A DNA stretch of 64,000 bases. Source: Candidatus Nomurabacteria bacterium (GTDB taxonomy: Bacteria; Patescibacteriota; Minisyncoccia; Phycocordibacterales; UBA918). Numbering within the stretch: the first letter of the stretch is position 1; the number at the start of each line of letters is the position of its first letter. Positions 35,900 through 52,810 of the stretch are shown here, one piece after another. The position numbers were made by a program, and so were the translations under genes. The stretch spans positions 936,470 through 1,000,469 of the forward strand of contig JACKGH010000001.1 of the NCBI GenBank assembly GCA_020632075.1, written 5' to 3'. Under the pieces are notes generated by a model that had not been told where the DNA came from, did not search any database, and saw nothing but the letters and a program-made list of their open reading frames with translations.

Positions 35900-35945
35900 A
35901 TTAACATTTAATTTTGGAGCCTGAATGCTGAGTGAATTTCGCGAA

Positions 35946-36006
35946 GCGGTGGCTGCGGACGAGAGAAACGTACAGTTCGTACGATGACCGAGGACGCAGC
36001 CACCGC
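35946..36006 (+). promoter_or_regulatory. stem-loop in an unusual 180-nt spacer between rplX and rplE (12-bp perfect stem, about 37-nt loop)
   Basis: gcggtggctgcg (35946-35957) pairs with cgcagccaccgc (35995-36006). Confidence 0.45.
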
Positions 36007-36078
36007 GAGAAAGTACCCCAGGGTATTTTCTCTTGCTACGCAATTCACCTTAAAATTCGCTGGCAGACAGCTCCCAAA

Positions 36079-36633
36079 ATGGGTATGGAAACAGTACAGA
36101 CTCAATTGAAGACAGTATTCGATTCTCTCAAGGGAGAATTCGGATACGCAAACGTTCATCAGGCACCAACGATCGAAAAGGTAGTGGTGTCTGTAGGAAC
36201 TGGTCGTGTAGACGACAAGCAGAAGATCGCGCTTATCCAGGACCGTCTTGCACAGATCACTGGACAGAAGGCCGCTCCTCGAGCAGCTCGTCAGTCAATC
36301 GCATCATTCAAGCTTCGCGAGGGTGATACGATCGGCTACCAGGTAACCCTTCGTGGTGCACGCATGAATGACTTCCTCAACAAGCTCATCCACATCGCAT
36401 TGCCACAGACTCGTGACTTCCGCGGTCTCAAGACCTCATCGATCGATGAAATGGGTAACTACACACTGGGTATCAAGGAACACACGATCTTCCCTGAAAC
36501 TCACGATGAAGAACTTAAGGATGTCTTTGGTATGTCGATCACGATCGTGACCACTGCCAAGACCAAGCCAGAAGCAGAAGCGCTTCTACGTCATGTAGGA
36601 ATGCCACTCCAGAAGGCAGACGAAGCAAAATAA
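36079..36633 (+). CDS. rplE: 50S ribosomal protein L5
   Basis: ANVHQAPTIEKVVVSVGTGR...TLRGARMNDFLNKLI. The start is taken at the ATG at 36079/36085, not the ORF-track start at 35932. Confidence 0.95.
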   Translation: MGMETVQTQLKTVFDSLKGEFGYANVHQAPTIEKVVVSVGTGRVDDKQKIALIQDRLAQITGQKAAPRAARQSIASFKLREGDTIGYQVTLRGARMNDFLNKLIHIALPQTRDFRGLKTSSIDEMGNYTLGIKEHTIFPETHDEELKDVFGMSITIVTTAKTKPEAEALLRHVGMPLQKADEAK

Positions 36634-36646
36634 TTGCTTTGGAAAA

Positions 36647-36684
36647 GAAACGGCCGGCCCCGAAGGGGCCGGCCGTTTCTTTTC
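36647..36684 (+). terminator. intrinsic terminator after rplE (rpsN does not follow)
   Basis: gaaacggccggcccc-gaag-gggccggccgtttctttt. Confidence 0.7.
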
Positions 36685-36736
36685 TATACATACAAAAACT
36701 CCCCCAAACTGGGGGAGTGAGAACCTGACAGGTTCT

Positions 36737-37342
36737 CTAGGAAAGGTGCTGTCCGACAAACCGGTCGAGGGCATGCATGAGTGACTCACGGCCACGTTCA
36801 GCGCAGCCATCAAGGAATGCGCGGTAGTCGTCGCAAGTGACGGTGTTGATGTCTTCAGGTTGCTGGCGGTCAGTCACGGTGCCAGCATGGTCGTTCTCGT
36901 ACGAGCGCAGCGTCGTGTGCAAGTAGGCGAGCAGTGCCTCGGCTGTCGGATAATCCCACTGTTCTTCTCCGGGGTTCAGGCGAGGTTGGTTGCCCCACGT
37001 GAGCCAGTACTGAATGGCCGGAAGTGGTATCAGGCCAGCTTCACGGCAGCAATCCTGGATCTCTGGCGTGATGCCTGCGGTCGATGTCTCGGTGATCTGA
37101 TCTGGCGGCAACGCGTTTTTAACGGGGACGAATTCCCGATTGTTTGCCTCTGAAATTTGGGTTATCCGCTCGACAGCGGGCGTACCGTCTGCCGACAGGT
37201 AACGGCTCGTTGTCACTCTCATGCCGAGCTGGTCAAACAGGTTGGGGATCTCTTTGGTCGTGTCTTCAGACATCGATTCTATTCTCCATAGTTGTGTTGA
37301 TCGTCCGTAGGTATTTAAAACATTTTTTGATCCATTCCGCAA
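36737..37342 (-). CDS. hypothetical protein
   Basis: A 201-aa ORF with no family recognized. Confidence 0.35.
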   Translation of the reverse strand: MRNGSKNVLNTYGRSTQLWRIESMSEDTTKEIPNLFDQLGMRVTTSRYLSADGTPAVERITQISEANNREFVPVKNALPPDQITETSTAGITPEIQDCCREAGLIPLPAIQYWLTWGNQPRLNPGEEQWDYPTAEALLAYLHTTLRSYENDHAGTVTDRQQPEDINTVTCDDYRAFLDGCAERGRESLMHALDRFVGQHLS

Positions 37343-37383
37343 TGATACAAAAACCCCGGCAAGTATTGCCGGGGTTGTGAAGG

Positions 37384-38448
37384 TTAAGATTCTGCTTGTT
37401 CGGTCAGCCTGATTCGCGTTTGTGCGAGGGTGCCGATCTCTGCTACAGCTGCGAAGGCTTGCTGTAGTTCATCATCAACCTTGGTGAGGTCTTTCCAGTA
37501 TCCAGACAGATCTGACGGATCATTGTCTTCAAGCTGAGTACGAGCCTCGGTGATCACGTCTTCGATATGATCACCATTAGTCGGATGCCGAAGCGTTTCG
37601 ATCATTGTTTCGAGGGACTGTAGATCCTGCTGCACCTTTTCAACGCGTGCCACAACTGTGGCCGGGTCGCCTGTTTGGTGCAGTGTCTCTATCACATTCT
37701 CCTCGAGCACACTCAGCTCATCGAGCTTTGCTTGCAGATCATTCAGCTTATCGCGTAGATCGCGGTATAGGGTAGACAGACTGATGAGTTCTTCTGCATC
37801 TTTTACCGCAGCACTCACATCTACTTCGAGCTGCCATACACGTGCCAGTTCTTCCGTGTAAGCGAGATACCTTTCAGCGATCAGTCCACGGACTTTGGCG
37901 ACATTTTCTTCAGCGTTTCCGAGTGTCCGGAACGAAGTGCGAGATCCTTCGAGCACATCGGTCAGATCGCTCAGTACAGCGTAGACCCCGTCTTTCTCCA
38001 TACGCAACTTCGGCCGCTGCTCGTTCAACAGCTTCAGATGATCGTTTAGGGTACGAGCTGCGTCGAAGGAAAAGTACCGGTCGATCACTTGCTCGCCAAG
38101 CTCGTATCGATCGACTTGCCGCCGAAAAAGTGCGGTTGCGAGAGCTCCGACGACTGTGATCAGAAAGCTAAGGAGACTCACGCCGACCCAGACGAGCATA
38201 TCGCTCGGCTGGTCGGTCAGATCGACTCCCATGCTTTGCGGCAGCCAGCCGCCGAGCATATCGTAGTAGTTGCCCGTCAGAAACGGGGGGTCGACCGCGT
38301 ATGTGTCGAGAGCGATCAGAACGACCATAGCGATGCTGTAGAGTCCGATCGCCAGAAAAGCCCAGGCCAAGGTCTTGGTGAGTGTGTACACACGATTCTC
38401 CTTTTGGTGGTTGCGTAAGGTGCTCAAAAGAGCAAACTGGCAAAACAA
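37384..38448 (-). CDS. membrane-anchored coiled-coil protein
   Basis: N-terminal TM helices (AWAFLAIGLYSIAMVVLIAL; VWVGVSLLSFLITVVGALATALF) followed by a long heptad-like region (LRDKLNDLQAKLDELSVLEEN...). Confidence 0.45.
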   Translation of the reverse strand: MFCQFALLSTLRNHQKENRVYTLTKTLAWAFLAIGLYSIAMVVLIALDTYAVDPPFLTGNYYDMLGGWLPQSMGVDLTDQPSDMLVWVGVSLLSFLITVVGALATALFRRQVDRYELGEQVIDRYFSFDAARTLNDHLKLLNEQRPKLRMEKDGVYAVLSDLTDVLEGSRTSFRTLGNAEENVAKVRGLIAERYLAYTEELARVWQLEVDVSAAVKDAEELISLSTLYRDLRDKLNDLQAKLDELSVLEENVIETLHQTGDPATVVARVEKVQQDLQSLETMIETLRHPTNGDHIEDVITEARTQLEDNDPSDLSGYWKDLTKVDDELQQAFAAVAEIGTLAQTRIRLTEQAES

Positions 38449-38509
38449 TACTATGTTTTCTTAATTAATCAATGCTTTGGCATAAGTTTATGGAGATACA
38501 GAAATACTA

Positions 38510-38537
38510 TTGACTTATGCAAAAAATTTAGTATAAA
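38510..38537 (+). promoter_or_regulatory. sigma70-like promoter TTGACT-16-TATAAA for the small gene at 38601
   Basis: ttgacttatgcaaaaaatttagtataaa, with an AAAGGAGA RBS before the ATG at 38601. Confidence 0.45.
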
Positions 38538-38600
38538 TTAGTTTTAGAAGTAAGCTGGATATGCCAGCAATACACAGCAACGCTCAACCAACAAAAGGAG

Positions 38601-38882
38601 ATGAGCATGGGGAATCCCGAAAAAAACGTGATCGACGCCGGCGACCAATTCCCGGGCGATTCGCATGATGACGAAGTTCAAAAGGGAGGCGGCGGTCGGT
38701 TTTTCTATCTGAAGGAGGCGACGACGTTCCTGATACCGGAAATGGGTGTCAGCAGTGCGTTGGTGCCGCTTCAGGTGCGGCTCAAGAAGTCGATCAGTCA
38801 GACCGGTCGACGCAATGCAGAAGACGGCGAAGCTCGCGTCTTCATCTGTGCGCAACGCACAACGCCGCTAGGTACTCCCTAG
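38601..38882 (+). CDS. small hypothetical protein
   Basis: 93 aa, with its own promoter/RBS and a downstream hairpin plus T7. Confidence 0.45.
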   Translation: MSMGNPEKNVIDAGDQFPGDSHDDEVQKGGGGRFFYLKEATTFLIPEMGVSSALVPLQVRLKKSISQTGRRNAEDGEARVFICAQRTTPLGTP

Positions 38883-38896
38883 CGGTGTTTTTTTGT
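38866..38896 (+). terminator. intrinsic terminator
   Basis: cgctagg-tactc-cctagcg followed by ttttttt. Confidence 0.5.
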
Positions 38897-38900
38897 ATAA

Positions 38901-38930
38901 AAAAGCCGGCGCGCAAGCGCCGGCTATGTT
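38901..38930 (-). terminator. intrinsic terminator for 38939..39370
   Basis: The minus strand reads agccggcgcttgcgcgccggctttttt. Confidence 0.5.
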
Positions 38931-38938
38931 CAACTCTC

Positions 38939-39370
38939 TCACTTTGCGTGAGGTTTGATAGTCATCATCATCCCTTGCCCGAGCTCGTAGAGCGTTTCGG
39001 AAAAGATGATCTGCTCGACAGGATCATCGATTAGTTCCTGGTAGGTGATGGTCACCTCAACCCCGGCTTCATCTTTGCGAGACTGCATGCCGTGGAACTC
39101 CTGCGCTTTTGTATCGTTGCGGGTGATGGTGATCCAGCGCGATGTGCCGTCGATCTTTTCGAGTCCGAGCACGATACCAGGTTGTACCTGCTCAAGCACT
39201 TGTACGAGCCGAGCCCGACGAGCTGCGTCGAGCTCTGCGTTTGTCGGTAGGTTCGCCAGAGAATCCCTATCGACACCTGCCACTATGAGCAGGACGCCGA
39301 GAATGAATACCACCGTTAAGGCAACACCCAAAGTGGTGAAAATCTTATTCATGTGCTCTTGTCGAGTCAT
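38939..39370 (-). CDS. small N-terminally anchored/secreted protein
   Basis: The start is taken at the internal ATG (MTRQEHMNKIFTTLGVALTVVFILGVLLIVAGV). Confidence 0.45.
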   Translation of the reverse strand: MTRQEHMNKIFTTLGVALTVVFILGVLLIVAGVDRDSLANLPTNAELDAARRARLVQVLEQVQPGIVLGLEKIDGTSRWITITRNDTKAQEFHGMQSRKDEAGVEVTITYQELIDDPVEQIIFSETLYELGQGMMMTIKPHAK

Positions 39371-39425
39371 GTTCGTCTCCTTGGCAAAGCCAAAAGTTGC
39401 GATAGTACAGAATTTTGCTTGTAAT

Positions 39426-39453
39426 ATAATACAACTTTTTAACAAAAAGTCAA
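39426..39453 (-). promoter_or_regulatory. promoter TTGACT-16-TATTAT (minus strand) for 38939..39370
   Basis: The minus strand reads ttgactttttgttaaaaagttgtattat. Confidence 0.45.
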
Positions 39454-39457
39454 TAAA

Positions 39458-39483
39458 ATGCCCGAGCTTTTTAGCTCGGGCAT
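39458..39483 (-). terminator. terminator of cassette gene P1 (conserved CCCGAGC/GCTCGGG hairpin)
   Basis: atgcccgagctttttagctcgggcat. Confidence 0.55.
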
Positions 39484-39516
39484 TAGTCTGCGTTGTGTTG
39501 CAGAAAGGGAACTTCT

Positions 39517-40326
39517 TCAGCGAGGTATGGTCGTGTGCCGCTTGCGCCACCACTCCTTAAAGGCAACGATCGGTCTCCGCCACTTTTCTCGGTGTACGAG
39601 TGCTCGGCGGTGTACACCTCGTTTGAACAGATGCCATTCTGTCTGTGGGAGTCGCAGTGCTCGAAAGCGTTTGACACGCATCGGTACTCGCTCCCACAGC
39701 GTGGGTAGAGCTCGATTGTTAAACCAATCTGCGATCTTTCCGAAAACCAGCTTGAGTTCGATATCATCAAGCATCGACAAGAGTCGCCACACAGCTCGGA
39801 AGACTGGCACCGCCACAAAGACCAGCACTGCAACGATCGCATCGTACACATCAAACGCATCAAAGATGAGTATGCTGGCGATGATCAGGATCGTCGCGAG
39901 TACACCGACCACGAACATGATCTGCTGGTGTTCGGTTTTGCCTCGCCACCATGCAGCCGGGCGTTCAAAAGTGTACTTTCGAAATGCTGCCGTCGCTGCT
40001 GCAGTTGCCTCTTCCTTGCCGTGCTTGATCGCTTCTTTTTCGTCTGGGTCGAGCAGCCAACGCGTAGGAATGAATAGCAGCCAGCGTAGCCACCGGATCG
40101 CAAAGGCTCTGGCCATGAGCGAAGGTGCGACTCGGGCGAGTGCAGCACCCCATTCAGGTAGGGTATCGAGCACGAATGCACGAAAGAAGGCTGGCGCCGT
40201 AAAGACGTCCCAGTAGTGATGCACTGCAAATGAGACTGCGCCAACGACACTCAATACAAGTAGTGTTCGCGGCAAAAACAACCAGGTGACTCCTCGCAGG
40301 AGGAGCTCGCGTAGTATCTGTATCAT
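39517..40326 (-). CDS. paralogous membrane protein P1 (novel family; F..TLPxW and ERPxxWW motifs)
   Basis: 269 aa: an N-terminal amphipathic segment, TM helices, FVLDTLPEWG, FERPAAWWRGK, and a basic C-terminal tail. Confidence 0.55.
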   Translation of the reverse strand: MIQILRELLLRGVTWLFLPRTLLVLSVVGAVSFAVHHYWDVFTAPAFFRAFVLDTLPEWGAALARVAPSLMARAFAIRWLRWLLFIPTRWLLDPDEKEAIKHGKEEATAAATAAFRKYTFERPAAWWRGKTEHQQIMFVVGVLATILIIASILIFDAFDVYDAIVAVLVFVAVPVFRAVWRLLSMLDDIELKLVFGKIADWFNNRALPTLWERVPMRVKRFRALRLPQTEWHLFKRGVHRRALVHREKWRRPIVAFKEWWRKRHTTIPR

Positions 40327-40365
40327 GCGTCTCTCTCCTCGAGAGTGTTTGTGAAGAACTATTAT

Positions 40366-40394
40366 GATTATGTCACATTTTGCTAGAAAATCAA
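40366..40394 (-). promoter_or_regulatory. promoter TTGATT-17-ATAATC (minus strand) for P1
   Basis: The minus strand reads ttgattttctagcaaaatgtgacataatc. Confidence 0.45.
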
Positions 40395-40401
40395 TAAAAA
40401 A

Positions 40402-40427
40402 GCGCCCGAGCAGTCCATGCTCGGGCG
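40402..40427 (-). terminator. terminator of cassette gene P2
   Basis: gcgcccgagcagtccatgctcgggcg abuts the stop codon. Confidence 0.55.
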
Positions 40428-41240
40428 TTAGTCTTTGAGGGTGATCATGATCTCGATCTCTAGCACTTCATCTATTTTTTGATGAAGGATCTCCATGAGT
40501 CGGACACGATCATCCAGATTTTTTGCGGTGTTCAGTTTTAGTTCTGCTGCTTTGGCGTGAATCTTTCTCTGGCGCAGCAGCATCGCGCGCAGATTTTTCC
40601 ATTTACGTTTGACTCGCTCTTCAGGAGCGGTGAAGCGATTGCGGACATTGGCAAAGCCTCGCTCGATGCGGTCGACTAGCGCTCCGGCACCGATCCTCGG
40701 CACCACGAACCTGAACGCGCCGACCAGCATTTGCTTCAGAATTGCCAGGGGGATGAGCAGCAAGCCCAAGAAGTGCAGGCTCGGTATCGATATGATGATC
40801 GCACCAATGCCTGCTGCCACCAATATCTTTCCGGTTAGGGTGAGACTTTTCCACCAAAGAACAGGACGTTCAATCAGGTGGTACTTTGCTCGTGCAAAGA
40901 CGTGTCGTTTCCGATGACGGAACCGCAGCTTGTACTCCTTCGCGAGGAAGTGTAAGCCGAGGTAGACTGCGAGCAGCCTAACCGACTTTTTCTTGGCAGC
41001 GTTTGAGATGGCTACTGCAGCTTTCGGGGCGAATTTGACCGCCAGCTTTACACCAGCCTGCCACCACTTAGGTAGTGTTTTGAGCACGAATTTCTTCAGT
41101 GCCACTCCGATGGTGGGGACGTCATAGAGCATCCATGCCACTCCACCGATGATCAAAAAGACGATGATCAACAGAATGATGCGAGGCCGCAAGAGCCAGA
41201 CGATAATTCCCTCAAGGAGGGAAGCGAGTAGTCGCAACAT
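40428..41240 (-). CDS. paralogous membrane protein P2
   Basis: 270 aa: LLASLLEGIIVWLL, FVLKTLPKWW, IERPVLWWKSL, and a basic C-terminal tail. Confidence 0.55.
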   Translation of the reverse strand: MLRLLASLLEGIIVWLLRPRIILLIIVFLIIGGVAWMLYDVPTIGVALKKFVLKTLPKWWQAGVKLAVKFAPKAAVAISNAAKKKSVRLLAVYLGLHFLAKEYKLRFRHRKRHVFARAKYHLIERPVLWWKSLTLTGKILVAAGIGAIIISIPSLHFLGLLLIPLAILKQMLVGAFRFVVPRIGAGALVDRIERGFANVRNRFTAPEERVKRKWKNLRAMLLRQRKIHAKAAELKLNTAKNLDDRVRLMEILHQKIDEVLEIEIMITLKD

Positions 41241-41277
41241 GATTCCTCCTAAAGAGACTGTGAAGAACTATGTTTAT

Positions 41278-41305
41278 ATTATAGCATAAAAATAGAAAAA
41301 ATCAA
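41278..41305 (-). promoter_or_regulatory. promoter TTGATT-16-TATAAT (minus strand) for P2
   Basis: The minus strand reads ttgattttttctatttttatgctataat, then an AGGAGG RBS. Confidence 0.5.
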
Positions 41306-41312
41306 TAAAAGA

Positions 41313-41336
41313 CACCCGAGCATCATTGCTCGGGTG
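41313..41336 (-). terminator. terminator of cassette gene P3
   Basis: cacccgagcatcattgctcgggtg abuts the stop codon. Confidence 0.55.
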
Positions 41337-42155
41337 TTAGTCTGTCTCTTCAACAGTTTCCTGTTTGAGGGCTTTAGCTGCTTTTGCGGCGGTCTGCTTA
41401 TCGCGCCAGGCGCGAATGTGTGTACGAACGACAAGACTCTTCTTGTCGAGCCAACCTTTGATCTTTTCGGTTGTGACGAAATGATGGGTGGCTAAGAAGT
41501 GAATACACCTTGAGTGTTTGACCCAGTTTGGAACAAGGTTGCTCAAAAAGGGCGCGACTCTATCGTGGACAAAGCCAGTGATTGCTGCTGACGTAAACGC
41601 CGGAGCAAATTGCTGAATGATCCAGAGGATAACGCCTGCGATGGAGCGCCAGAAGAAAAATATCGCATAGAGGACAGCTTCAGTCTTTGAAAAGTATGGA
41701 CTGATAGCCAAGACGGTAAGTGTCGCCAGGGTCAGTGTCGACACGATAATCGTGCGGGTGCGCGGTGACTTCCGGCGCCACCAAAGCTGCGGCCGTCTGA
41801 TCGTGTACTTGTGTGCTGCTCTGATCGCTCTGTCCTTGCTGGCCAAGATCTGTCGCTTTTCTTCGCGACTGAGATAGCTCAGTATGACAAAGGCCAGAAA
41901 TGCTCGCAAATACTTCGAGGCGAGTGCTCGTGGTATGAGCGGTAAGCTCGACTTGATCGTGAGCTTGATCCACTGTGGGAAGGTCTTGGTAGCAAAGGCT
42001 TTCACCGAGGTGAAAAATACCGGGGTGAAAAGAATGTGCCAAAATGCCATGGCGACACCGACTGCGGTCAGGAAGACCGTGACCCAGATAATGCCATGGA
42101 GTGAGATTGCCCATGCTGCGATGCCCTCAAGGAGGGCAGCGATAGCTTTGCGCAT
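41337..42155 (-). CDS. paralogous membrane protein P3
   Basis: 272 aa: AIAALLEGIAAWAI, FATKTFPQWI, IRRPQLWWRRK. Confidence 0.55.
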   Translation of the reverse strand: MRKAIAALLEGIAAWAISLHGIIWVTVFLTAVGVAMAFWHILFTPVFFTSVKAFATKTFPQWIKLTIKSSLPLIPRALASKYLRAFLAFVILSYLSREEKRQILASKDRAIRAAHKYTIRRPQLWWRRKSPRTRTIIVSTLTLATLTVLAISPYFSKTEAVLYAIFFFWRSIAGVILWIIQQFAPAFTSAAITGFVHDRVAPFLSNLVPNWVKHSRCIHFLATHHFVTTEKIKGWLDKKSLVVRTHIRAWRDKQTAAKAAKALKQETVEETD

Positions 42156-42194
42156 GCAGCCTCCTTATAGGAACGATGTGAAAGAACCGGAAAT

Positions 42195-42222
42195 ATTATA
42201 GCACAAAAGTGAGTAAAATCAA
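42195..42222 (-). promoter_or_regulatory. promoter TTGATT-16-TATAAT (minus strand) for P3
   Basis: The minus strand reads ttgattttactcacttttgtgctataat, then an AAGGAGG RBS. Confidence 0.5.
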
Positions 42223-42327
42223 TGATATGAAGATAGCAGAATAGATGACTGAAACATTGACTTTTTTACAAAATATGTAATAATACTTCAGGTTCTTTAA
42301 CGTTGCTCAAAAACCGTAGGAGGTAGC

Positions 42328-43278
42328 ATGGCAACAGCTCAGCAAGCAGCGGCAGCACAGCCGCAGGCACGTCGCCAGGGTCCGGGAGCGATTTCTCGCT
42401 TTGTGAGAACTCCCTGGATCAACAACAAGTACTTCTGGCTTTTCGTCAGTACGCTGGTTGCGTTCGGTATCTGGAACCGGTGGAGCTTCTCGCTCACACA
42501 TGCGTTCAAGGAGATTCTCATCAGCATTTACCAGATGAATGAGTCGGCCGACTGGTCGACGATCTTCTCGGCTCATGCTGGAGAGATCATGACCATGATG
42601 GGGATTCTGGGCGTCGTGCTCGGACTCTCCATCTGGTTCGTAGTCTATCAGGTGCGCAGAGAGCAGCATATGAAAGCGATTCGTGGCGCACTGTTTGCCA
42701 TGTCGGTGGCTATCATGCTGATCATCTACGCCTGGAGTAAGGGGATCATTCAGGGTGAGTGGTATGACGTCTTCTTGTTGACGGTCGTCGGTATCCTCAT
42801 CATCGGTCTCACTGGTTTTGGTGCCTGGATGGTCGGTATCGCGATCAATGGCCTCGATTGGGGTCATTTTGCCACCGTAATGATCGGTGGCTTGGTCGGC
42901 ATGCTGATTTTCGTAGCCGCCCCATCCATGCCCATCCTTGCAGACTGGTGGTTCGAGCCGAGTCGTGAAAATATCTCGGTGTATGTACAGATCGTGCTCG
43001 TGCTCTGGCTGACTGCTGGCTTTCGTGCCAAGAAGTTCGAACTGGCAGCGACTGGTCAACGGACCATCAGTTCGTCGAGTGGCGGTGTCACTATCCAGGA
43101 CTTCGGTCGTGATGCTGAGCAGGACTTGCATGCAGGTCACGATCATCATACCCACGATGAGCCGTTCGATCTGGGTAGCATCGGTCATGATCACGACGAC
43201 CAGCAGCTGCTCGAAGATGGCGACATCGTTGACCAGCAGCTGCTGGATCGCGATGACGATGACGACGATCGCCGGTAA
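42328..43278 (+). CDS. polytopic membrane protein with His/Asp-rich C-terminal tail
   Basis: 6-7 TM helices. The tail reads DLHAGHDHHTHDEPFDLGSIGHDHDDQQLLEDGDIVDQQLLDRDDDDDDRR. Confidence 0.5.
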   Translation: MATAQQAAAAQPQARRQGPGAISRFVRTPWINNKYFWLFVSTLVAFGIWNRWSFSLTHAFKEILISIYQMNESADWSTIFSAHAGEIMTMMGILGVVLGLSIWFVVYQVRREQHMKAIRGALFAMSVAIMLIIYAWSKGIIQGEWYDVFLLTVVGILIIGLTGFGAWMVGIAINGLDWGHFATVMIGGLVGMLIFVAAPSMPILADWWFEPSRENISVYVQIVLVLWLTAGFRAKKFELAATGQRTISSSSGGVTIQDFGRDAEQDLHAGHDHHTHDEPFDLGSIGHDHDDQQLLEDGDIVDQQLLDRDDDDDDRR

Positions 43279-43408
43279 CCGGTAAGGAGTAACAACCTGG
43301 CACAAGGAAGTGCCAAGCCCGTCTAAATGACGGGTTTTTTCTTGTCTCAACTTTCAGTTTAAAACAAAAAATCGCTGGCAGACGTGTGTCTACCAGCGGG
43401 TGGATATG

Positions 43409-44095
43409 CTAGATTCTTTCTCTTATTCCTCCACGACGACTCCTGAACGTTACAGGGATCTTCGTTTTTGGAGTAACGACTGCACCAGTGTCGCCGGGTT
43501 TGTCGGCTTCTTCGTCCATCTCTGCGAGCGTGCTTGCGAATTCCTGCAGGCCTTCAGGCAGTTTGCCGCTGGTGTCCAGCAATGCTTCCAAGACCGCGTC
43601 GCGAACCTGCAAAATAAGCGAGTCGTCAGGATCGTCGGTCGAGAGCAGGTCCCGATACAGCGCCTGGTTGAGTCTCTCGGCCTGGTCAGTGTATTGCTTC
43701 AGTACATCTCGCGCCACTGCGATAGCGTCTGCTTGACGTTGCTTCTGCCCATCGCTTGCTGCTTGCAGGTCTGCCTTAAGGCTCATGTTCTCGTTCTCCA
43801 GATTGATCATCCGGAGTTTGTCGAGCTCATCGTCGACCAGGTCACGCAGCCAGTAGCGCACGATGACGAGCACTGCGAGTGCTGCCGGTACTGCCAGGAT
43901 GGTGATGGTTGCCCATGGGTGGGCGGCCAGCCAACCGAACGGATCAGCGTAGTAGGTCGACATGGCGCCGGTCACGGCATTGAACTTCTCACGGATACCA
44001 GCGATCGACACCAAGCCGAAGTGCAAGCCGATAGCGGTAGCGATAGCACCGAGAATAACGAGCAAGCCGAAATTTCTCAGAAATTTTGCCAACAT
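43409..44095 (-). CDS. membrane protein with cytoplasmic coiled-coil region
   Basis: 228 aa with two N-terminal TM helices. Confidence 0.45.
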   Translation of the reverse strand: MLAKFLRNFGLLVILGAIATAIGLHFGLVSIAGIREKFNAVTGAMSTYYADPFGWLAAHPWATITILAVPAALAVLVIVRYWLRDLVDDELDKLRMINLENENMSLKADLQAASDGQKQRQADAIAVARDVLKQYTDQAERLNQALYRDLLSTDDPDDSLILQVRDAVLEALLDTSGKLPEGLQEFASTLAEMDEEADKPGDTGAVVTPKTKIPVTFRSRRGGIRERI

Positions 44096-44281
44096 GGCGT
44101 TCTCCTTCTGGGTGGGTGGAACAGTGTGTACAGCAAATGCTGTAGTTACAACTGGGCAAAATAATACCTAAAAAACTACGTTTGTAAATATTTTGAAAAT
44201 AAAAAAACGACCCAAGCTCATATAGAGCAAGGGCCGTCGTGAGAAGTGTGAGGCTCACGCCCCACGTTGGACTCAGGATGT

Positions 44282-45271
44282 TTACCTGGCGACGATGCTT
44301 TCGGCAGTTTTCATTGCCGACCGGTATGCACGGGCAGCCAGTGCAGCCGGGGTGTCGGCGGGCAGCAGGTCAGGGTCCTGCACGATTTTGGTGAGCTTCG
44401 ACATCACCTCATCGGTCATAACCTTGCTTTCCAGGTTGACGTACACGGATACCGGCGTATGCGGCACACGCACCAGGTCACCTTTACCGATCCACACCAT
44501 CAGTCGATTGCCGCCGATGGTCGCATCCGCGCTGGTGTAGGCCTGATTCCCCTTTTTGTCCTTGATGCCTTCGACAGCAGACGAATCGATGGTCAGCCAG
44601 CTCAGTTGCTTGTCCTGGTTAACCAGGGCGATGAAGCCTTCGGTAGCCAGGGGATCGGGGGTCAGCACCATGCAGACCAGGTCACGCTTGCCGCTTCGCA
44701 GGCGACTCAGTTCACGAGCGACGCCGTACTCACGACCTTTTTCCTCCGGCATGTAGATCTCGGTGGAGGCAGTGATCGCGGGAATGTTGTTTCGGATCGT
44801 GTTGACAGAGAAACGTGTCCCTGAACTGGCCGTGTCAGCACTGATCTTGTAGGCCTTGTCGGGAGCTTCGGTGTCTTCGACCTCGCCCCATTCCTTCAGG
44901 CGACCAGTTGTGTTGTAGGCACAGAGCAGCGCCTCGGATCCAACGACGCCGAGCGAGGCGACAACCTCGCCGAATTCGTCATCAGCCATGGACTTGGCCA
45001 CGTGTACGTCGCCCTGAGCCAGGCCGACATCGATCTCGCCGTTATAGAGTCCGTCCAGGTTCTTGCCGCTGTTGCCGTAGACCAGCTCGATATTGATGCC
45101 GACCTCGGCAGCGCGCTTCTTGATGGCTGCACCGTAGGTATTGGTGTAGGCACTGGTTTTGTTGTTACCTCCCACACCAAGCTTGACGGTCACGGCAGCA
45201 GCGGCCGAGCTGGTCGCCATATAGAGTGCGATGCCGGCAGCAATCGCGAGTTGCTTCAGGTGATTCCGCAT
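44282..45271 (-). CDS. periplasmic substrate-binding protein (TAXI-TRAP / PhnD-like) with no adjacent permease
   Basis: A signal peptide (LAIAAGIALYMATSSAAAA) and LGVGGNNKTSAYTNTYGAAI...VGINIELVYGNSGKNL, resembling the TAXI/PhnD family. Confidence 0.45.
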   Translation of the reverse strand: MRNHLKQLAIAAGIALYMATSSAAAAVTVKLGVGGNNKTSAYTNTYGAAIKKRAAEVGINIELVYGNSGKNLDGLYNGEIDVGLAQGDVHVAKSMADDEFGEVVASLGVVGSEALLCAYNTTGRLKEWGEVEDTEAPDKAYKISADTASSGTRFSVNTIRNNIPAITASTEIYMPEEKGREYGVARELSRLRSGKRDLVCMVLTPDPLATEGFIALVNQDKQLSWLTIDSSAVEGIKDKKGNQAYTSADATIGGNRLMVWIGKGDLVRVPHTPVSVYVNLESKVMTDEVMSKLTKIVQDPDLLPADTPAALAARAYRSAMKTAESIVAR

Positions 45272-45585
45272 GGATATTCCTCCGTTTTGCGGTTTACAGA
45301 AAGTCTTTGCTATTTCACGAAATAGCTTGAGTCCAATAGATTGAAATGTACTAGAGAACCCAAAGCTGCGGAGAACACTATCATACTTTAAAAAAATGTC
45401 AACCCCTTAGGAGGGGTTTGTGGTTGGGGGGGTAACTGGGCGGCGGGCGAAGCCCGCCGCCCTCTCACGAAAAGAAAACGTCACAAAACATTGACAAATA
45501 CTAAATAAATGTTACTCTGTAAGGTAGGATTCTTTGTAAATTCACTATCTTTTTTACCATCGTCAAATTGACATAGGGGGTTGTT

Positions 45586-46899
45586 TTGGAAACTCAAAAC
45601 ACAAATGTAGTCGAGTCGGAGACAGAAAAGTCCTCCGAAGAGGCAGGCCTGCTGACTGAAGCCGTCGAAGAGACGAAGAGTGTCGGCTGGGTTGCGAAGG
45701 CGTACGTGGCATTGGTGGCAACTCTCACTGGTGTGGCAACGTACTATTTTGGTCCGGTCGGACTGATCACGCTGCTCCTCATGGGGCTGATGTCTCGCAT
45801 CGACGCTGGTGATCCGATGTCGATGGCTATCGATAAATGGGTGTACAAGCTCATCGTGAGCACGGTCACCCTACTGCTCGTCTCTGTCTATGGCTTCTGG
45901 TTCCTGCCGCTCTTGCTTCTGCTTGGCGGTCGGAAGCTGCTCGGGTGGGTTGCTACCCTCCAGGGGCAGTTCTGGAAACTCGTGTTGATCGCGATTGCGT
46001 ACAAACCGTTCCCGATAGGGCTAGCCAACAAGCTGGCCTCTAGGAAATCAGTTGAGGAGGTGTTGTTCGGTTCGCCGGCAGACGCCAAGTCATTCCTTCG
46101 CAGTGATGCATGGAATACAACGAAGGAAATGTACGACACGCTGATGCCAGAGCAACAGGGCGATCAGTCTACGTGGGCCAACGTGCTTTCGTATGTGATC
46201 GTTCTCGGTGTCATTGTGCCTGGTACTATCTGGGCAGCTGACTACCACTGGGATCATGTCCTGAAGTTCTACGATCTCCTGTCGGAGTTCGTTTCAGGCA
46301 CGCTCTCGGGTATCGGCGGTGCGGTCTTGGCGATCGGCAGTGGTCATATTCTCGACCTATTTGGCGAGACCTGGAACCTGCTCAAGGTGGTAGCGACAAC
46401 AATCAGTGCTTTTATCGGCCTGATTATCTTCGACTTCACGATCAACATCTTCTTGCACCTGATGATCCTCATTGGTGCGGAACGGCTTTACAGCAAAAGT
46501 GAGTCTTTCCGTAACTGGGTGCATCGGACGTTCAATCAAGTCAAGGAGCTCTTTAAGAAGAGTAAGGGTGGCATCGTGACGTTCCTCCGTCGCCAGCCTC
46601 GGCTGGTGCAAGGGGCTTTGATCGCTATGTCTGGTCCGGCAGTGCTGGTTGTTGCTATGGTCATCTGGCTGTGGCAGGTCGCAAGGCTCTTCGTCTTGAA
46701 GAAGCTGGCGATCGTGCTCATGAAACAGCCGGTCTTGAAGGCTCGCAAGAGCGAACGGCTTCGCAACTTCCTGTCAAAGCAGCGAGAAAATCTGCTGGCA
46801 CGGATCAAGGGCGAATCGTCCACCAAAGAAGATGTTGTAGAACTGTCACCTGACATGCCTGCACATAGAGAAGCGGAGAACAGCTCGGTCTCGAAGTAA
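45586..46899 (+). CDS. polytopic membrane protein
   Basis: A 437-aa protein with many TM helices and an unknown family. Confidence 0.45.
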   Translation: METQNTNVVESETEKSSEEAGLLTEAVEETKSVGWVAKAYVALVATLTGVATYYFGPVGLITLLLMGLMSRIDAGDPMSMAIDKWVYKLIVSTVTLLLVSVYGFWFLPLLLLLGGRKLLGWVATLQGQFWKLVLIAIAYKPFPIGLANKLASRKSVEEVLFGSPADAKSFLRSDAWNTTKEMYDTLMPEQQGDQSTWANVLSYVIVLGVIVPGTIWAADYHWDHVLKFYDLLSEFVSGTLSGIGGAVLAIGSGHILDLFGETWNLLKVVATTISAFIGLIIFDFTINIFLHLMILIGAERLYSKSESFRNWVHRTFNQVKELFKKSKGGIVTFLRRQPRLVQGALIAMSGPAVLVVAMVIWLWQVARLFVLKKLAIVLMKQPVLKARKSERLRNFLSKQRENLLARIKGESSTKEDVVELSPDMPAHREAENSSVSK

Positions 46900-47046
46900 C
46901 ACTCAACGTAAACGAGAGAGAAAGTATTGTGAAGAAGCAGCCCGCGGTGGGGAACACCGCGGGCTTTTTGTTTTTGTATGAAAAATAGAAAGTGGCCAAG
47001 AGCGTTGCTCTTGGCCACTGAAGGTGCTGGTGAGGCGAAGCTGTGT

Positions 47047-47553
47047 TCAGCAGATCTTGTCGATCAGCTTCGATGCAGTCTCTTTGATGCTTTGGAAGGT
47101 GTGCTTGATCTTGTCGATCAAGATCTGACGCGCTTCTTCGCGGGACAGGAACTTGTCCTTGTCTGTCACGATGTCATGGAACGGCTGCTGTGCCGCGATG
47201 AGTGCAGCACGTTGTTCATCGGTGACTTTGCCGAGTGCGACCATCGCGTCTGCGAAGTTGTCTTTGCTACGGTTCTCCCAGATGTTGATTGTCTTCACAG
47301 GCGCGAGTACTGCCAGAATGGCAAGGCCGAAAATTTTGACAGAGCCGTAGAACATTGGCCAGAACGATTTGCTCAAGAGCAGCAGAAAGAAGGCCAGTAA
47401 GCCTTTCAGGCCAAACGCGAAAATCAGAAGTGCCACGAATGCCGCAGTTCCAGCCAGAATGACCTGACACTTGGTGAGGCCGTAGTACAGCTTCTTCTCG
47501 ACGACAGTTGCTTCGACGGCAGAAGTAGTGTCCTGAGTGGTCTCGTCGACCAT
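47047..47553 (-). CDS. small membrane protein
   Basis: 168 aa with two TM helices. Confidence 0.4.
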   Translation of the reverse strand: MVDETTQDTTSAVEATVVEKKLYYGLTKCQVILAGTAAFVALLIFAFGLKGLLAFFLLLLSKSFWPMFYGSVKIFGLAILAVLAPVKTINIWENRSKDNFADAMVALGKVTDEQRAALIAAQQPFHDIVTDKDKFLSREEARQILIDKIKHTFQSIKETASKLIDKIC

Positions 47554-47662
47554 GCTTCACCTCCTCGGTGATGGTTGTTTGAAAGAATCCTGTGTAAATA
47601 ATAACATAAATAACACTTTTGTCAAAGATTTATGTAAGAGTTACACCGCAATTATTTCAATT

Positions 47663-47694
47663 AAAAAGCTCCCAGCCGTGTGGCTGAGAGCTTT
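47663..47694 (-). terminator. intrinsic terminator for 47715..48390
   Basis: The minus strand reads aaagctctcagccacacggctgggagcttttt. Confidence 0.5.
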
Positions 47695-47714
47695 GGTTGC
47701 TTGAACCGCGAGGG

Positions 47715-48390
47715 TCAGAAAATCGGTGTGCTGATGCTCATTCCGACGACCCAGTGCGAATCCTCACGCTCGCGCATCGTGTACGTAGTCTCAAGGAATG
47801 TCAGCGTGGTGTCGCCGAGCGCGATGCTCGGTGCCAGGGAGAGTTCTCCGAACCAGACCTCCTCTTCGTACGTGGTGTCGTACCCGGCACGAATGCTGGG
47901 TGTCAGAGTCACGGTATCGAGCGAAAAGTCCTTGCTGACCCCACCGTGGAAGATGAAGCCGTTGCTGGCGCTGTCGTCGATGATCTTCCAGTACTCGACA
48001 CCGACGAAGCCGGACATGTCCATGAAGTCATGATCGATCCGCGCTGCAGCGACGATCGCATCGCCGGTCGTGTTGTTCATGTCCGGGATGTTGAACCAGC
48101 TGACCGACAGGTCGAGCGAGGTTCCTTCGTCGATCTCGATGATCTTCCCGACGGTACCGTCGATCTCCTCGAAGTCGATGACGTCGTTGAGAGCGAACCA
48201 GCCGTTGAGATAGAAGCCGCTGTCGTGTTCGACGTATGCGTTGGCTTCTCCGAGCGGGTTGTCACGCACCTCGTAGCCGTTGTAGACGTACTTGCTCTTC
48301 CCACCAAGGGAAAGCTCTCCCGACAAATCGGCCAGGGAGGTGAGCGGTGCGAGGATGAGAATTGCAGCTGCAATGATGATCTTGTTCAAG
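47715..48390 (-). CDS. signal-peptide protein with alternating beta-strand pattern and C-terminal Phe (MipA/OmpV-like outer-membrane beta-barrel candidate); TTG start
   Basis: A TTG start at 48388-48390 gives MNKIIIAAAILILAPLTSLA. The protein has alternating hydrophobic residues and ends ...SISTPIF. Confidence 0.4.
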
Positions 48391-48527
48391 AGCGTAGCAC
48401 TCCAGTAGATTTGGGCGAAGTGCCGTTGATTACTATATAACATATTTACAAAAATCAAGTATTTGGCATACTGATACTTTACAAAACATACTTTATGTAG
48501 TTTGATCTTACCTAGATTTTACGGTAT

Positions 48528-49655
48528 TTGCTGAAGGAGGCAATCTTGAAAGAATCACTACCTACTGTGGACAATCAAGTATTGGAAGCGGTGCAAGTTG
48601 TGAAGGAGACGTTCGCGTTTGATTTTTGGGGCACTGATGGCTCCAAGATACTGATCTGCTTTCTGCTCACACTCTTCCTGTTTATCTTGTCTGAGCCGGT
48701 GCGCGCATACCTGCGCAAACGAAACGGTGACGAGGGCAAGACGATCCGCTTGATGCAGGGGAAGGCTGGCTGGGTGTCGCTCGGGATCATCTTGGTAACA
48801 TCGTACGCTGCTGCGTACTACCTCAAGAATGCGATCGATGTGATCGAGATCCCCACCTATCTACTCGGCATCATTGTCTTGGTGCGGTGGATCAACGGTA
48901 TGATCCGTGGTCCGCTGCTCAAGGCAGCTAAGTTGATCTGGGATACGCAAACGAATGATCACTTGCGAAAGGTCGGCATGCTCGCCACGTATGCGGTGAT
49001 ATCGTTTGGGGTGTATTTGGCACTCAGTGTGCTTAGCTACAACATCCAGGATCTGGTCGATCTTGGTCTGCCTGACTGGGTAACAGCGACGGCATCGGCA
49101 CTGGTATTCTTGCCGTTCTTGCAAGCGTTGGTGCAAAGTCTCGCGCTCTCCAATGACCGCAAGATGGAAGTGGGTGAGTGGGTGAAGATCGGCGACGTCG
49201 TCGCAAAGCTTAAGTGGAGCACGTTGCGTGGTTTAGTCCTTGAGGACGCGGAAGGAGTTGAGGTGGTCATACCAAACTCCATAGTGGAGAAAAGTGAATT
49301 CCGCAATCTGAGCAAGCGTAAGCGCTGGCGTGATACGTTCACGTTCTATGTCAGTGCTCAGGTGCCACCGGCCGCTCTCAGTGAACTTCGTAGCAGTGTG
49401 CTCACGCATATTGCTCAAGACTCGGAGTGCAAGCCGCAGCGGTGCTGGTTTCAGCAAGAATATCCTGGCGTGATCACGTTGCGGGTAATCGTCGATATCG
49501 AACCGCCAAGGAATGCGCCAGATCGTGGCGCTCTCCGAGACGAGAAGTACGACAAGGTATTTCAGCTGGTGGGTACGCTGATCGACTCGAGTGGTCAGGT
49601 GAACATGTTTCAACTTCAGCCACCGATCACTGGCGCACTGCCGCAATTGCCGTAA
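48528..49655 (+). CDS. MscS-family mechanosensitive channel
   Basis: VGEWVKIGDVVAKLKWSTLRGLVLEDAEGVEVVIPNSIV matches the MscS beta-domain signature (GDxVxIG...G.VE.I.....IR..DG.....PNS), with TM helices upstream. Confidence 0.7.
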   Translation: MLKEAILKESLPTVDNQVLEAVQVVKETFAFDFWGTDGSKILICFLLTLFLFILSEPVRAYLRKRNGDEGKTIRLMQGKAGWVSLGIILVTSYAAAYYLKNAIDVIEIPTYLLGIIVLVRWINGMIRGPLLKAAKLIWDTQTNDHLRKVGMLATYAVISFGVYLALSVLSYNIQDLVDLGLPDWVTATASALVFLPFLQALVQSLALSNDRKMEVGEWVKIGDVVAKLKWSTLRGLVLEDAEGVEVVIPNSIVEKSEFRNLSKRKRWRDTFTFYVSAQVPPAALSELRSSVLTHIAQDSECKPQRCWFQQEYPGVITLRVIVDIEPPRNAPDRGALRDEKYDKVFQLVGTLIDSSGQVNMFQLQPPITGALPQLP

Positions 49656-49812
49656 GTTCGTTTGTCGACTGTTCGACGAAGCCCCGACCACATGGTCGGG
49701 GCTTTTATATTGACAAAATTGATTTTTATAGTAATTTTTCTGCAGCGTTTGTCGCTATTTAAGACAAAAAGTACACCTGTTCATAGACATCACTGTGTAA
49801 GGAGTGTGAAAT

Positions 49813-51027
49813 ATGCGAACAGATTCAAACCCAGCCAACACGGCAATTTCGCTGACGGTGGTAGCGGTAATCTTTCTATCGATCAGTCTGAAGATCTTCG
49901 CGCCGTATCTGACCCCGGTGGTCGTTGCGGCTACGATGGGTATTCTGACCTGGGGAGCGTTCACGCGGTTGCGTGACCTGCTTGCCAGATCGCGCTGGCT
50001 GAAACCGTATTCGCCTGCTGCCGCAGCCTTCATTATCTGGCTGCTGACGACGAGTGTGGTAATCCTGCCAGGGTTCTTCCTTGGTAATTACGCACTCGTA
50101 AGCGGTATCGGTACGATTCGCGAGTTTATTGGTGACTTCCTGCTCGAGCATGAGTCGATCAATGCCTTCCTGCAAACACAGATCAGCAATCTGGTTTCAA
50201 TGCTGCCTGAAGAGGTGGTGCCAACGGTGCAAGAACGTCTCGGCGAGTTTGCTACCGTCGGTGCGCTGTTCAGTGGCAAGATGGGTGGAGCCGCCTTTGG
50301 TTTCATCTCTTCGGCTTCGGTCAGTGTGCTCGGTGCGGTGGGGACACTCGCGTTCTCGCTCTTGTTGTTTTTCTTCGTACACACCGATGGACCTGCATTC
50401 CTGAAGTGGATGAACGAGAAGCTGTATCTGCGCGAGCGTGGCGATGATATGTTCACCGAGGTGGCTGGTCTGATCAAGGGCATTGTCCTTGGATCAGTAC
50501 TGGTGCAGTTTATTCAAGCTTCGGCGTATAGTCTGACGCTGTTTGGCATCTCGCTGTTCGTGGACATTCCGAACCTCGGTGTGTGGATCGCAGTCATCAT
50601 GATCGCAGGCACCATTATTCCGGTGGTCGCCACTGCCGGAATGGCAATCGCGGTGGGAATGCTGTTCTACTCGGGCGCATTCATCCCCGGCATTGTCGGT
50701 GTGGTGGTCATTGCGATCTTCTCTACCGTCGACGGGATCATCCGTGGCTGGTTCGTGGGTTCACAGGTAAAGATCCCGGTTTCACTGATCGTCTTCTCGA
50801 CGATCTTTGGCCTCGGCTTGTTCGGATTCGTGGGTTTGATCCTTGGTCCGGCAGTTGTCGCCTTGGGTAAATCAGCAGCCGGTCATGCAACTGAAGCGTT
50901 TGCCGAGTGGCGGCAGTTCAACGCTGAACGTGAAGCAGAAAAAATGCAGATCAAAGTCGAACAGCTCGATGAGACACGCAAGCTGCGCGAAACTATGGAG
51001 CGGCTTCTGGAAGCACAAAAACAGTAA
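49813..51027 (+). CDS. AI-2E family transporter (UPF0118/PerM-like)
   Basis: 8 TM helices with a characteristic topology; C-terminal LGLFGFVGLILGPAVVALGKS. Confidence 0.65.
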   Translation: MRTDSNPANTAISLTVVAVIFLSISLKIFAPYLTPVVVAATMGILTWGAFTRLRDLLARSRWLKPYSPAAAAFIIWLLTTSVVILPGFFLGNYALVSGIGTIREFIGDFLLEHESINAFLQTQISNLVSMLPEEVVPTVQERLGEFATVGALFSGKMGGAAFGFISSASVSVLGAVGTLAFSLLLFFFVHTDGPAFLKWMNEKLYLRERGDDMFTEVAGLIKGIVLGSVLVQFIQASAYSLTLFGISLFVDIPNLGVWIAVIMIAGTIIPVVATAGMAIAVGMLFYSGAFIPGIVGVVVIAIFSTVDGIIRGWFVGSQVKIPVSLIVFSTIFGLGLFGFVGLILGPAVVALGKSAAGHATEAFAEWRQFNAEREAEKMQIKVEQLDETRKLRETMERLLEAQKQ

Positions 51028-51138
51028 CGATGTATTCGATCGCCTTGGGGTAACCCGAGGCGATTTTTTATTTATAAACATGTAAAAAGGGCGCATGCGG
51101 ATGCATGCGCCCTTGGTGGTTGGAGAAATGTGAACTGA

Positions 51139-52314: not shown

Positions 52315-52420
52315 GTATTTCTCCTTGTATAGGAACGGGGGAGCTAAATGTCACCAAAAAGGTGGTGACGACCTGCGCAATTTTTACTGTATGTAAGGCA
52401 CCTTGTCAATGTTAGGTGTG

Positions 52421-52451
52421 GCGCGCGAGGCTTTAGCCGAGCGCGCTTTTT
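52421..52451 (+). promoter_or_regulatory. terminator-like hairpin plus T5 in the leader upstream of rpsN (possible attenuator or small-RNA terminator)
   Basis: ggcgcgcgaggctttagccgagcgcgcttttt; there is no plus-strand CDS upstream. Confidence 0.3.
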
Positions 52452-52624
52452 CTATTGCTTTTTATACATATTCTGGTATTCTTGCCCGCAAGACGAACGG
52501 TCATTGTTCTCATATATATGAGTGACCCGACGTTGAAGGTGAACACGCATGCGTGTAAGCCGGATTTATTCACGAGTAAGTCGTCGATTCTAGGCGATAC
52601 TGCTCACAATTTAATACTTGGTAC

Positions 52625-52810
52625 ATGGCTAAAAAGTCAATGATCATCAAGGCGCAACGAGCGCCTAAGTTCAAGTCACGTGTCGTACGACGCTGTACAC
52701 TTTGTGGACGTCCACACGGCTACCTTCGTGACTTCGGCATGTGTCGTATTTGCTTCCGTGAACAGGCACACGAAGGACATATACCAGGCGTAAGGAAATC
52801 ATCATGGTAG
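52625..52810 (+). CDS. rpsN: 30S ribosomal protein S14, zinc-binding type Z
   Basis: 61 aa; [23 protein letters not shown] has four Cys. Confidence 0.9.

Follow-up and report, generated by a model that had tools for sequence, protein, structure and literature searches.

Short composite elements made up of a stem-loop, an AT-rich stretch, a promoter, a Shine-Dalgarno sequence and a start codon are known as PeSLs (promoter-early stem-loops; Comeau et al. 2014, PMC4122927). In T4-type phages they have been proposed to serve gene shuffling (Arbiol et al. 2010, PMC2839356; PMC4122927). The same parts in the same order are found at the boundaries of three adjacent genes, here called P1, P2 and P3, in the stretch of DNA that we analyzed: 64,000 nucleotides from a Candidatus Nomurabacteria bacterium (contig JACKGH010000001.1; hereafter the window, to which all coordinates refer unless another genome is named). 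As with PeSLs, these modules lie between short, putatively monocistronic open reading frames (ORFs) in a variable region bounded by core genes. There are also clear differences. The genome is that of a cellular member of the candidate phyla radiation (CPR) and not of a T4-type phage, and the stem is found at three homologous genes, whereas PeSLs repeat between many unrelated ORFs. No indel breakpoint or mini-circle is tied to the array modules, whose exact repeats are 11-13 nt, and the flanks of the array go wherever the gene goes, as regulatory signals of its own.

Two other kinds of gene array invite comparison. The attC sites of integrons are imperfect palindromes of 55-140 bp with R''/L''-L'/R' boxes and a GTTRRRY core, and integron cassettes are mostly promoterless. 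The locus is like an integron array in having co-oriented short ORFs with a palindromic element after each. It differs in that no integrase was found among the scanned ORFs of the island that holds the array, there is no attI, the ORFs are homologous to one another and have their own promoters, and the palindromes have the form of simple terminators. With ordinary tandem arrays of paralogs it shares duplication of a whole unit, a promoter and a terminator for each copy, and divergent copies lying side by side. Its peculiarities among such arrays are that the family is new and very narrow, that the terminator lies 0-5 nt past the stop codon family-wide, that the T-tract runs into the next -35, and that the array lies within an spc ribosomal-protein cluster that is split.

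An earlier reading of the DNA letters (the original prediction) described P1-P3 as self-contained promoter-gene-terminator units encoding paralogs of no known family, and suggested an actively diversifying or recombining array of cassettes, possibly integron-like. The description of the units stands. As to their nature, P1-P3 are probably an ordinary tandem array of anciently diverged paralogs with conserved transcription signals, and not mobile cassettes.

Three paralogous genes and their family

The three genes lie head to tail on the minus strand.

41337-42155, minus strand: P1, 272 aa, subtype A1, NCBI hypothetical protein KC877_04625; nearest relative P0004.
40428-41240, minus strand: P2, 270 aa, subtype B, NCBI hypothetical protein KC877_04620; nearest relatives P0009 and P0005 (44-47% identity).
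39517-40326, minus strand: P3, 269 aa, subtype A2, NCBI hypothetical protein KC877_04615; nearest relative P0003 (40%).

KC877_04615, KC877_04620 and KC877_04625 are annotated under a Candidatus Kaiserbacteria metagenome-assembled genome (MAG) whose contig measures 1.0 Mb. The proteins align over their full length with pairwise identities of 25-30%. Residues invariant among them (L8, L9, W15, F54, T58, P60, W62, R121, P122, W125 and W126) make up an LLEG-like motif, F..T.P.W and RP..WW, in agreement with the prediction of three minus-strand genes of about 270 aa with these motifs and low overall identity. A Kyte-Doolittle scan gave about three transmembrane (TM) segments per protein, at approximately residues 20-43, 135-155 and 160-180, the lower of the three to four helices expected. 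The expected basic excess is strong, with K+R to D+E counts of 39/13 for P1, 49/17 for P2 and 41/23 for P3.

Relatives of P1-P3 were found when 1.84 billion cluster representatives were searched exhaustively with a profile; a word-indexed protein search returned self-matches and P0009 only. The profile search yielded 20 proteins at E<=1e-3, 18 of which are full-length relatives of 240-310 aa with the same motifs. Matches extended over nearly the full length at E values from 1e-48 to 8.5e-5, and F..KT(L/I)P.W, (E)RP..WW and three TM segments characterize the family (P1-P3 and P0003-P0018). All members named by their source are hypothetical proteins of Candidatus Kaiserbacteria, one MAG being also labelled Nomurabacteria in another source. 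An alignment search with subtype B against species-representative genomes matched one genome. Assignment to a well-known family would have weighed against the original prediction. There were no matches for P1-P3 in Pfam, PADLOC, PDB sequences or Rfam, nor any fold match; in PHROGs there was nothing significant for P1 or P3 and only a marginal match for P2 (phrog_16698, E=0.0074). Judged by their sequences, P1-P3 are three subtypes (A1, B and A2) of a small, narrow and new CPR membrane-protein family.

An AlphaFold2 model built from a 19-sequence alignment was all-helical, with a predicted local distance difference test score (pLDDT) of 78.5 and a predicted template modelling score (pTM) of 0.32. 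The protein would begin with an amphipathic helix and TM1, followed by a basic helical stretch of ~95 residues bearing F..KT(L/I)P.W and ERP..WW. TM2 and TM3 would form a hairpin, behind which the C-terminus would be a basic helix of ~90 residues. The positive-inside rule would place almost everything outside the membrane, including both basic helical domains, on the cytoplasmic side. As a tentative suggestion, the proteins could be membrane-anchored polycationic scaffolds on the cytoplasmic face that bind anionic lipid or nucleic acid. The E. coli proteins YqjD, ElaB and YgaM are membrane-anchored ribosome-binding proteins of ~100 aa with a C-terminal tail anchor. They resemble P1-P3 in carrying basic helical cytoplasmic domains on an inner-membrane TM segment, and differ in size and anchoring (~100 aa with a tail anchor, compared to 270 aa with three TM segments). 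The resemblance is a functional analogy, a lead and not evidence.

Transcription signals and the age of the array

The signals around the three genes, in the direction of transcription, are as follows.

42195-42222, minus strand: P1 promoter-like site, TTGATT-16-TATAAT with a TG extended -10.
42182-42187, minus strand: GTTCTT, 7 nt past the P1 -10, in the transcription-start region.
41312-41337, minus strand: hairpin after P1, ACACCCGAGCA-loop-TGCTCGGGTGT, -20.4 kcal/mol, then TCTTTTATT.
41278-41305, minus strand: P2 promoter-like site, TTGATT-16-TATAAT with TG; the -35 begins 6 nt past the P1 hairpin.
41259-41268, minus strand: GTTCTTCACA motif, 9 nt past the P2 -10.
40403-40427, minus strand: hairpin after P2, CGCCCGAGCA-loop-TGCTCGGGCG, -20.5 kcal/mol, then CTTTTTTATT.
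40367-40394, minus strand: P3 promoter-like site, TTGATT-16-CATAAT with TG; the -35 begins 8 nt past the P2 hairpin.
40350-40359, minus strand: GTTCTTCACA motif, 7 nt past the P3 -10.
39483-39488, minus strand: GACTAA adjoining the P3 hairpin, out of frame with P3.
39457-39484, minus strand: hairpin after P3, AATGCCCGAGCT-loop-AGCTCGGGCATT, -22.6 kcal/mol, then TTATTGAC; it begins 33 nt past the P3 stop.
39426-39453, minus strand: promoter-like site of the 143-aa gene that follows the array, TTGACT-16-TATTAT.

The pattern CCCGAGC-N(3-9)-GCTCGGG occurs three times in the window, each time just 3' of P1, P2 or P3 (0.00 expected), so that the predicted common stem is present after all three genes and nowhere else. 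The hairpins have perfect GC stems of 9-12 bp, loops of 4-7 nt and a T-run behind them, and their fold z-scores relative to shuffled sequences range from -5 to -7.3. A GC-rich hairpin followed by a T-run at the 3' end of each gene is the anatomy of an intrinsic terminator. We compared five CCCGAGC hairpins for compensatory changes. The seven inner pairs are invariant, with covariation at two outer pairs (CG/UA and AU/GC) and pairing in 100% of the 45 cells, which fits a functional RNA hairpin under structural selection.

The hairpins of P1 and P2 start 2 nt past the stop codon, so the predicted abutment of hairpin and stop holds for these two genes; it fails for P3, where 33 nt intervene. The TGA of P3 stands at this displaced position in all population contigs. 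The out-of-frame GACTAA beside the P3 hairpin is the same as the ends of P1 and P2 and resembles the end of P0005 (GAGTAA); we read it as the remnant of an earlier stop codon. An ORF in an alternative frame (39483-39863, minus strand) ends in ...AEEVPFLQHNAD at the TAA of this remnant. The displaced stop, together with GACTAA in another frame, points to a frameshift, or to a junction left by recombination, close to the 3' end of P3.

Each array hairpin is followed, 3-8 nt on, by TTGAYT and, after a spacer of 16 nt, by TATAAT, CATAAT or TATTAT. Most of these -10 boxes are of the TG-extended type, and downstream of each array promoter-like site lies a strong Shine-Dalgarno sequence. The predicted promoters and ribosome-binding sites are thus in place, with a spacing of 16 nt and not 16/17. 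The sequence (A/G)GTTCT, mostly GTTCTT, is found 4-9 nt past the -10 in eight family members, including some from other genomes. The GTTCTT-type motif may be a start-site or operator element of the promoter class; no RNA structure was found for it. A leader hairpin in which GUUCUUC would sequester the Shine-Dalgarno sequence was considered and rejected, as the leaders fold like shuffled sequences (z from -1.3 to +1.6).

At 11 other loci the family gene occurs locally as a single copy, and its ends are conserved there as well. P0009 lies as a single copy between two tRNA-synthetase genes and ends in TAA+CACCCGAGC...GCTCGGGTG+TCTTTTT, which is the extended stem of P1. P0005, a single copy between rplE and rpsN of a related genome, ends in TAA+TACCCGAGC...GCTCGGGTA. 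A hairpin is present 0-5 nt past the stop in the members inspected (n=13), with the exception of P3, with its displaced stop, and P0003, whose contig ends too soon. In some other members the stem is unlike CCCGAGC and its position at the stop is kept. The regions upstream of family genes are also significantly similar across genomes. The ends are better conserved than the coding cores, as predicted. Because the same flanks are found on single-copy genes in other contexts, the ends behave as conserved transcription signals.

Conservation of the stem between genomes is not in itself unusual. The terminator stem of rplE, as well as a block upstream of rpsN, is conserved between the window and the related locus L018, which indicates that conservation of terminator stems between orthologs is ordinary at this distance. 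For orthologs, the idea that cross-genome identity of the CCCGAGC stem is special was therefore dropped. A scan of Joint Genome Institute (JGI) metagenomes for the hairpin followed by a -35 gave 41 matches; none lay beside a family gene, and they are taken as chance terminators.

The duplications that gave rise to P1-P3 are old. P2 scores 217 bits with P0009 (44% identity) and 163 bits with P0005 (47%), compared to at most 50 bits with P1 and P3. Similarly, P3 scores 193 bits with P0003 (40%) and P1 scores 140 bits with P0004, whereas pairs from the array score ~50 bits. The proportion of synonymous differences (pS) among the paralogs is 0.70-0.77, which is saturated, and nonsynonymous divergence (dN) is 0.8-0.9. 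Saturated synonymous sites and the closer kinship of each paralog with a protein from another genome both place the duplication far back. The array is also invariant in populations: six independent assemblies are 99.8-100% identical over it and show no structural variant. These results, with the flanks kept at single-copy loci, give no sign of an actively diversifying or recombining array, and the variation in cassettes between populations that was sought as a sign of one did not appear in the six assemblies.

Taken as a transcription unit, each gene of the family would open with an extended -10 promoter of the sigma-70 type and the GTTCTT motif of the start region. An unstructured leader would come next, then a strong Shine-Dalgarno sequence ahead of the coding sequence, and last an intrinsic terminator beginning 0-5 nt after the stop codon. 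Within the array, the terminator of one gene would be joined to the promoter of the next, its T-tract running into the AT-rich stretch and the -35. From this arrangement we infer that each gene is transcribed independently and monocistronically. The array would have originated in an old duplication of the whole promoter-to-terminator unit, and selection on transcription signals would have kept the ends conserved. The shared CCCGAGC stem would be either inherited or homogenised within the array.

The island between rplE and rpsN

Genes for EF-G and SecY lie in the window, as does the ribosomal-protein cluster. The rplE-rpsN junction, normally contiguous in bacteria, is split in the window by an island that interrupts the spc cluster and holds the array.

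36634-52624, no strand assigned: island with the array, 16 kb between rplE (35932-36633) and rpsN (52625-52810).
38939-39370, minus strand: gene for a 143-aa single-TM protein that follows the array; the family gene is immediately followed by a homolog of 142 aa in L012 and of 147 aa in L060.
42257-42284, plus strand: promoter-like site of the divergent 316-aa membrane-protein gene (42328-43278), TTGACT-16-AATAAT, then GGTTCTTTAAC.

Most genes of the island encode membrane proteins with no family assignment; MscS-like and AI-2E-type transporter genes are also present, and the GC content does not differ from that of the flanks. A terminator-like hairpin and a promoter-like site of its own accompany nearly every island gene, the genes outside the array using stems other than CCCGAGC, indicating that the cassette style is the local norm and not specific to the array. 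The promoter of the unrelated 316-aa gene matches that of P1 (z=8) as well as the family promoters match one another, so the likeness among promoters is that of one promoter class. The promoter style predicted for the genes at 38939-39370 and 42328 is accordingly there, in the form of TTGACT-16 sites, and is shared widely in the island; the first of these genes, placed upstream of the array in the original prediction, lies downstream of P3 in the direction of transcription.

The start-region motif also recurs in the island. (A/G)GTTCTT, or GGATTCTTT at two further genes, is found 3-9 nt past the -10 of at least 5-7 island promoters; apart from the three array sites, these lie at 42289-42300 (plus strand), at ~45370-45385 (minus strand), and upstream of 45586 (plus strand) and 47553 (minus strand). 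At the promoters of EF-G and of the gene at 24688, the -10 is followed not by a GTTCTT-type motif but by GTGCGC, which is GC-rich. The 329-aa and 437-aa genes have divergent promoters, and the DNA between these (45401-45465) contains AACCCCTCCTAAGGGGTT and GGGCGGCGGGCGAAGCCCGCCGCCC, both GC-rich hairpins. There is no gene upstream in the same direction that would need a terminator at this place, and the first hairpin overlaps the -35 of the 329-aa gene (GGGGTTGACA).

The content of the island differs between related genomes. It holds ~16 genes in the window compared to 4 in the related genome L014/L018, and P2/P0005 is the only gene shared. (The corresponding regions of the relatives are L014 5763-9502 and L012 1-3550; in L012 the genes after rplE are island genes and not rpsN.) Both the copy number and the subtype of the family gene at the array locus vary between related genomes, a point in favor of the original prediction.

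Some neighbors of the family gene recur. A ~145-aa single-TM protein is encoded directly downstream of it in 3-4 genomes (window 38939-39370, L012 1924-2352, L060 2500-2943 and L014 8901-9359), the L014 protein being weakly similar to the other ~145-aa proteins. A DUF6524 protein is encoded directly upstream of it in L007, L013 and L061, and nearby in L063/L064; a DUF6524 gene was looked for in the window and not found. A homolog of the ~330-aa coiled-coil membrane protein encoded at 37384-38448 is located upstream of P0007 in L060. Searches of the literature on DUF6524 and on insertions in CPR ribosomal clusters found nothing relevant.

We made several observations at the edges of the island. 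Three contigs from independent metagenome assemblies of the same population (L001, L002 and L003) end at 36665-36680, in the rplE terminator region, which is the island boundary. Assemblies would be expected to break there if relatives in the same samples had the ribosomal genes in common but not the content of the island. The longest rplE ORF (35932-36633) encodes 233 aa, with the L5 domain starting at residue 74, and the proteins of relatives are 177-182 aa; the true start of rplE is probably near 36091. At the other edge, the block upstream of rpsN (window 52460-52530; L018 ~7860-7930, reverse strand) reads TTGC(T/C)T...TGGTATT(C/G)T, then CGCAAGACGAACG. From this sequence it looks as if the distal half of the split spc cluster had its own promoter and a conserved leader.

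Competing explanations and what the array means

Several findings weigh against a simple tandem array with inherited signals. The inner 7-bp stem is the same in P1-P3, whereas the stem of P0004 differs and the short sequence available after P0003 is without it; a CCCGAGC stem common to the paralogs but not to the A-type relatives fits homogenisation by recombination better than simple inheritance. In a comparison of L007 and L013 upstream of P0004, the intergenic DNA is 72-82% identical and the flanking coding DNA 30-50%, a contrast beyond what is usual. (This region, L007 1896-2075, holds the DUF6524 gene's terminator and the family gene's promoter, and the flanking proteins are 23% and 37% identical to those of L013.) The slot before the ~145-aa gene is occupied by subtype B in L014 and L060, by A1 in L012 and by A2 (P3) in the window. 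The terminating ribosome has a footprint that could mask the 5' arm of a stop-adjacent hairpin, and with hairpins starting 2 nt after the stop such masking, and some read-through, would be possible. Finally, the role proposed for the protein is a guess, the model having a pTM of 0.32 and no match by fold.

The first three of these findings also speak for PeSL-like shuffling, which we consider unlikely. By analogy with the phage elements, the terminator-promoter modules would act as short direct repeats, and recombination between them would delete, insert and swap fast-evolving membrane-protein genes in the rplE-rpsN island. The parts of a PeSL (stem-loop, AT-rich stretch, -35 and -10, Shine-Dalgarno sequence and ATG) are all present within ~100 nt, and the modules lie in a hyperplastic region bounded by conserved ribosomal genes, with its ~16 genes compared to 4. 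The varying subtype before the ~145-aa gene, with a homologous module downstream of that slot, the stem restricted to the paralogs, the out-of-frame GACTAA after P3 and the intergenic conservation between L007 and L013 point the same way. Against this, no breakpoint has been mapped to a module, the available relatives being too distant (synonymous divergence, dS, is saturated) to map any, and the six population assemblies are without a structural variant. The longest exact repeats between modules are 11-13 nt, and in the 64 kb the shared stem is found at family genes only, with none flanking unrelated ORFs. Differential loss from an ancestral array explains the pattern of subtypes equally well, and the similarity of the promoters is what a single promoter class would give.

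The conserved ends and diverged cores could instead reflect a recent tandem duplication under strong diversifying selection, the flanks having had no time to diverge. This is very unlikely and already largely refuted by the sequence comparisons above, namely the saturated synonymous sites (pS 0.70-0.77) and the nearer relatives of each paralog in other genomes. The proteins do evolve fast. Between the window and L018 (KC906), SecY is 86% identical, the Adk-like protein 75% and ribosomal proteins 85-99%, with synonymous sites still saturated; for this genome pair dN is 0.51 for P2-P0005 compared to 0.05-0.26 for core genes. Judged by these sequences the family is fast-evolving with no sign of dN above dS: dN/dS is 0.21 for P2-P0005 and 0.46 for P2-P3, dS being saturated in both, and nowhere exceeds 0.5 where it can be estimated. 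In addition, because most of the protein mass is predicted to be cytoplasmic, the proteins are unlikely targets of an arms race at the cell surface.

It is highly improbable that the array belongs to a prophage, a phage-derived block of early genes or an anti-phage defence island. The many small monocistronic genes of unassigned function with strong promoters would suit such an origin, and the neighboring 329-aa gene matches phrog_6856, a family whose function is unassigned. A megablast search with 10 kb gave 0 matches in 50,697 phage and 72,556 plasmid records. P1-P3 have no PADLOC match and no significant PHROG match beyond the marginal one of P2. The island has the GC content of its flanks and holds MscS-like and AI-2E transporter genes, and the family gene is syntenic in related cellular genomes.

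A reading as orphan integron-like cassettes, or as site-specific cassettes of another kind, with the hairpins as attC-like recombination sites, deserves almost no credence. The ORFs are co-oriented with a palindrome at each 3' end, but the island ORFs that were scanned showed no domain of a tyrosine recombinase or any other recombinase; Pfam was used for most of them, PHROGs and PADLOC in addition for several, and for g201 only the latter two. The perfect 9-12 bp stems with T-runs have the anatomy of terminators and not of attC, and there is no GTTRRRY at the boundaries (the recurrent GTTCTT is pyrimidine-rich and follows the -10). Every unit has its own extended -10 promoter-like site, and the same flanks are found on single-copy genes in unrelated contexts. 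The prediction of integron-like cassettes was thus not supported, while its companion statement, that no integrase or attC-like site is present, was borne out for the scanned ORFs and boundaries.

An ordinary array of old paralogs with conserved transcription signals, the reading that we prefer, would add one more small CPR-specific membrane-protein family, which is not surprising. The array is a clean example of a terminator and a promoter packed into ~100 nt in the compact genomes of Patescibacteria, and as such aids the annotation of transcription signals in uncultivated lineages. The context is more promising, because a variable island splits a ribosomal cluster and the regulatory DNA there is better conserved than the genes that it controls. 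If the modules were recombination substrates, modular gene shuffling as proposed for phages would extend to a cellular genome, and the island would be a hotspot of adaptation in episymbiotic bacteria.

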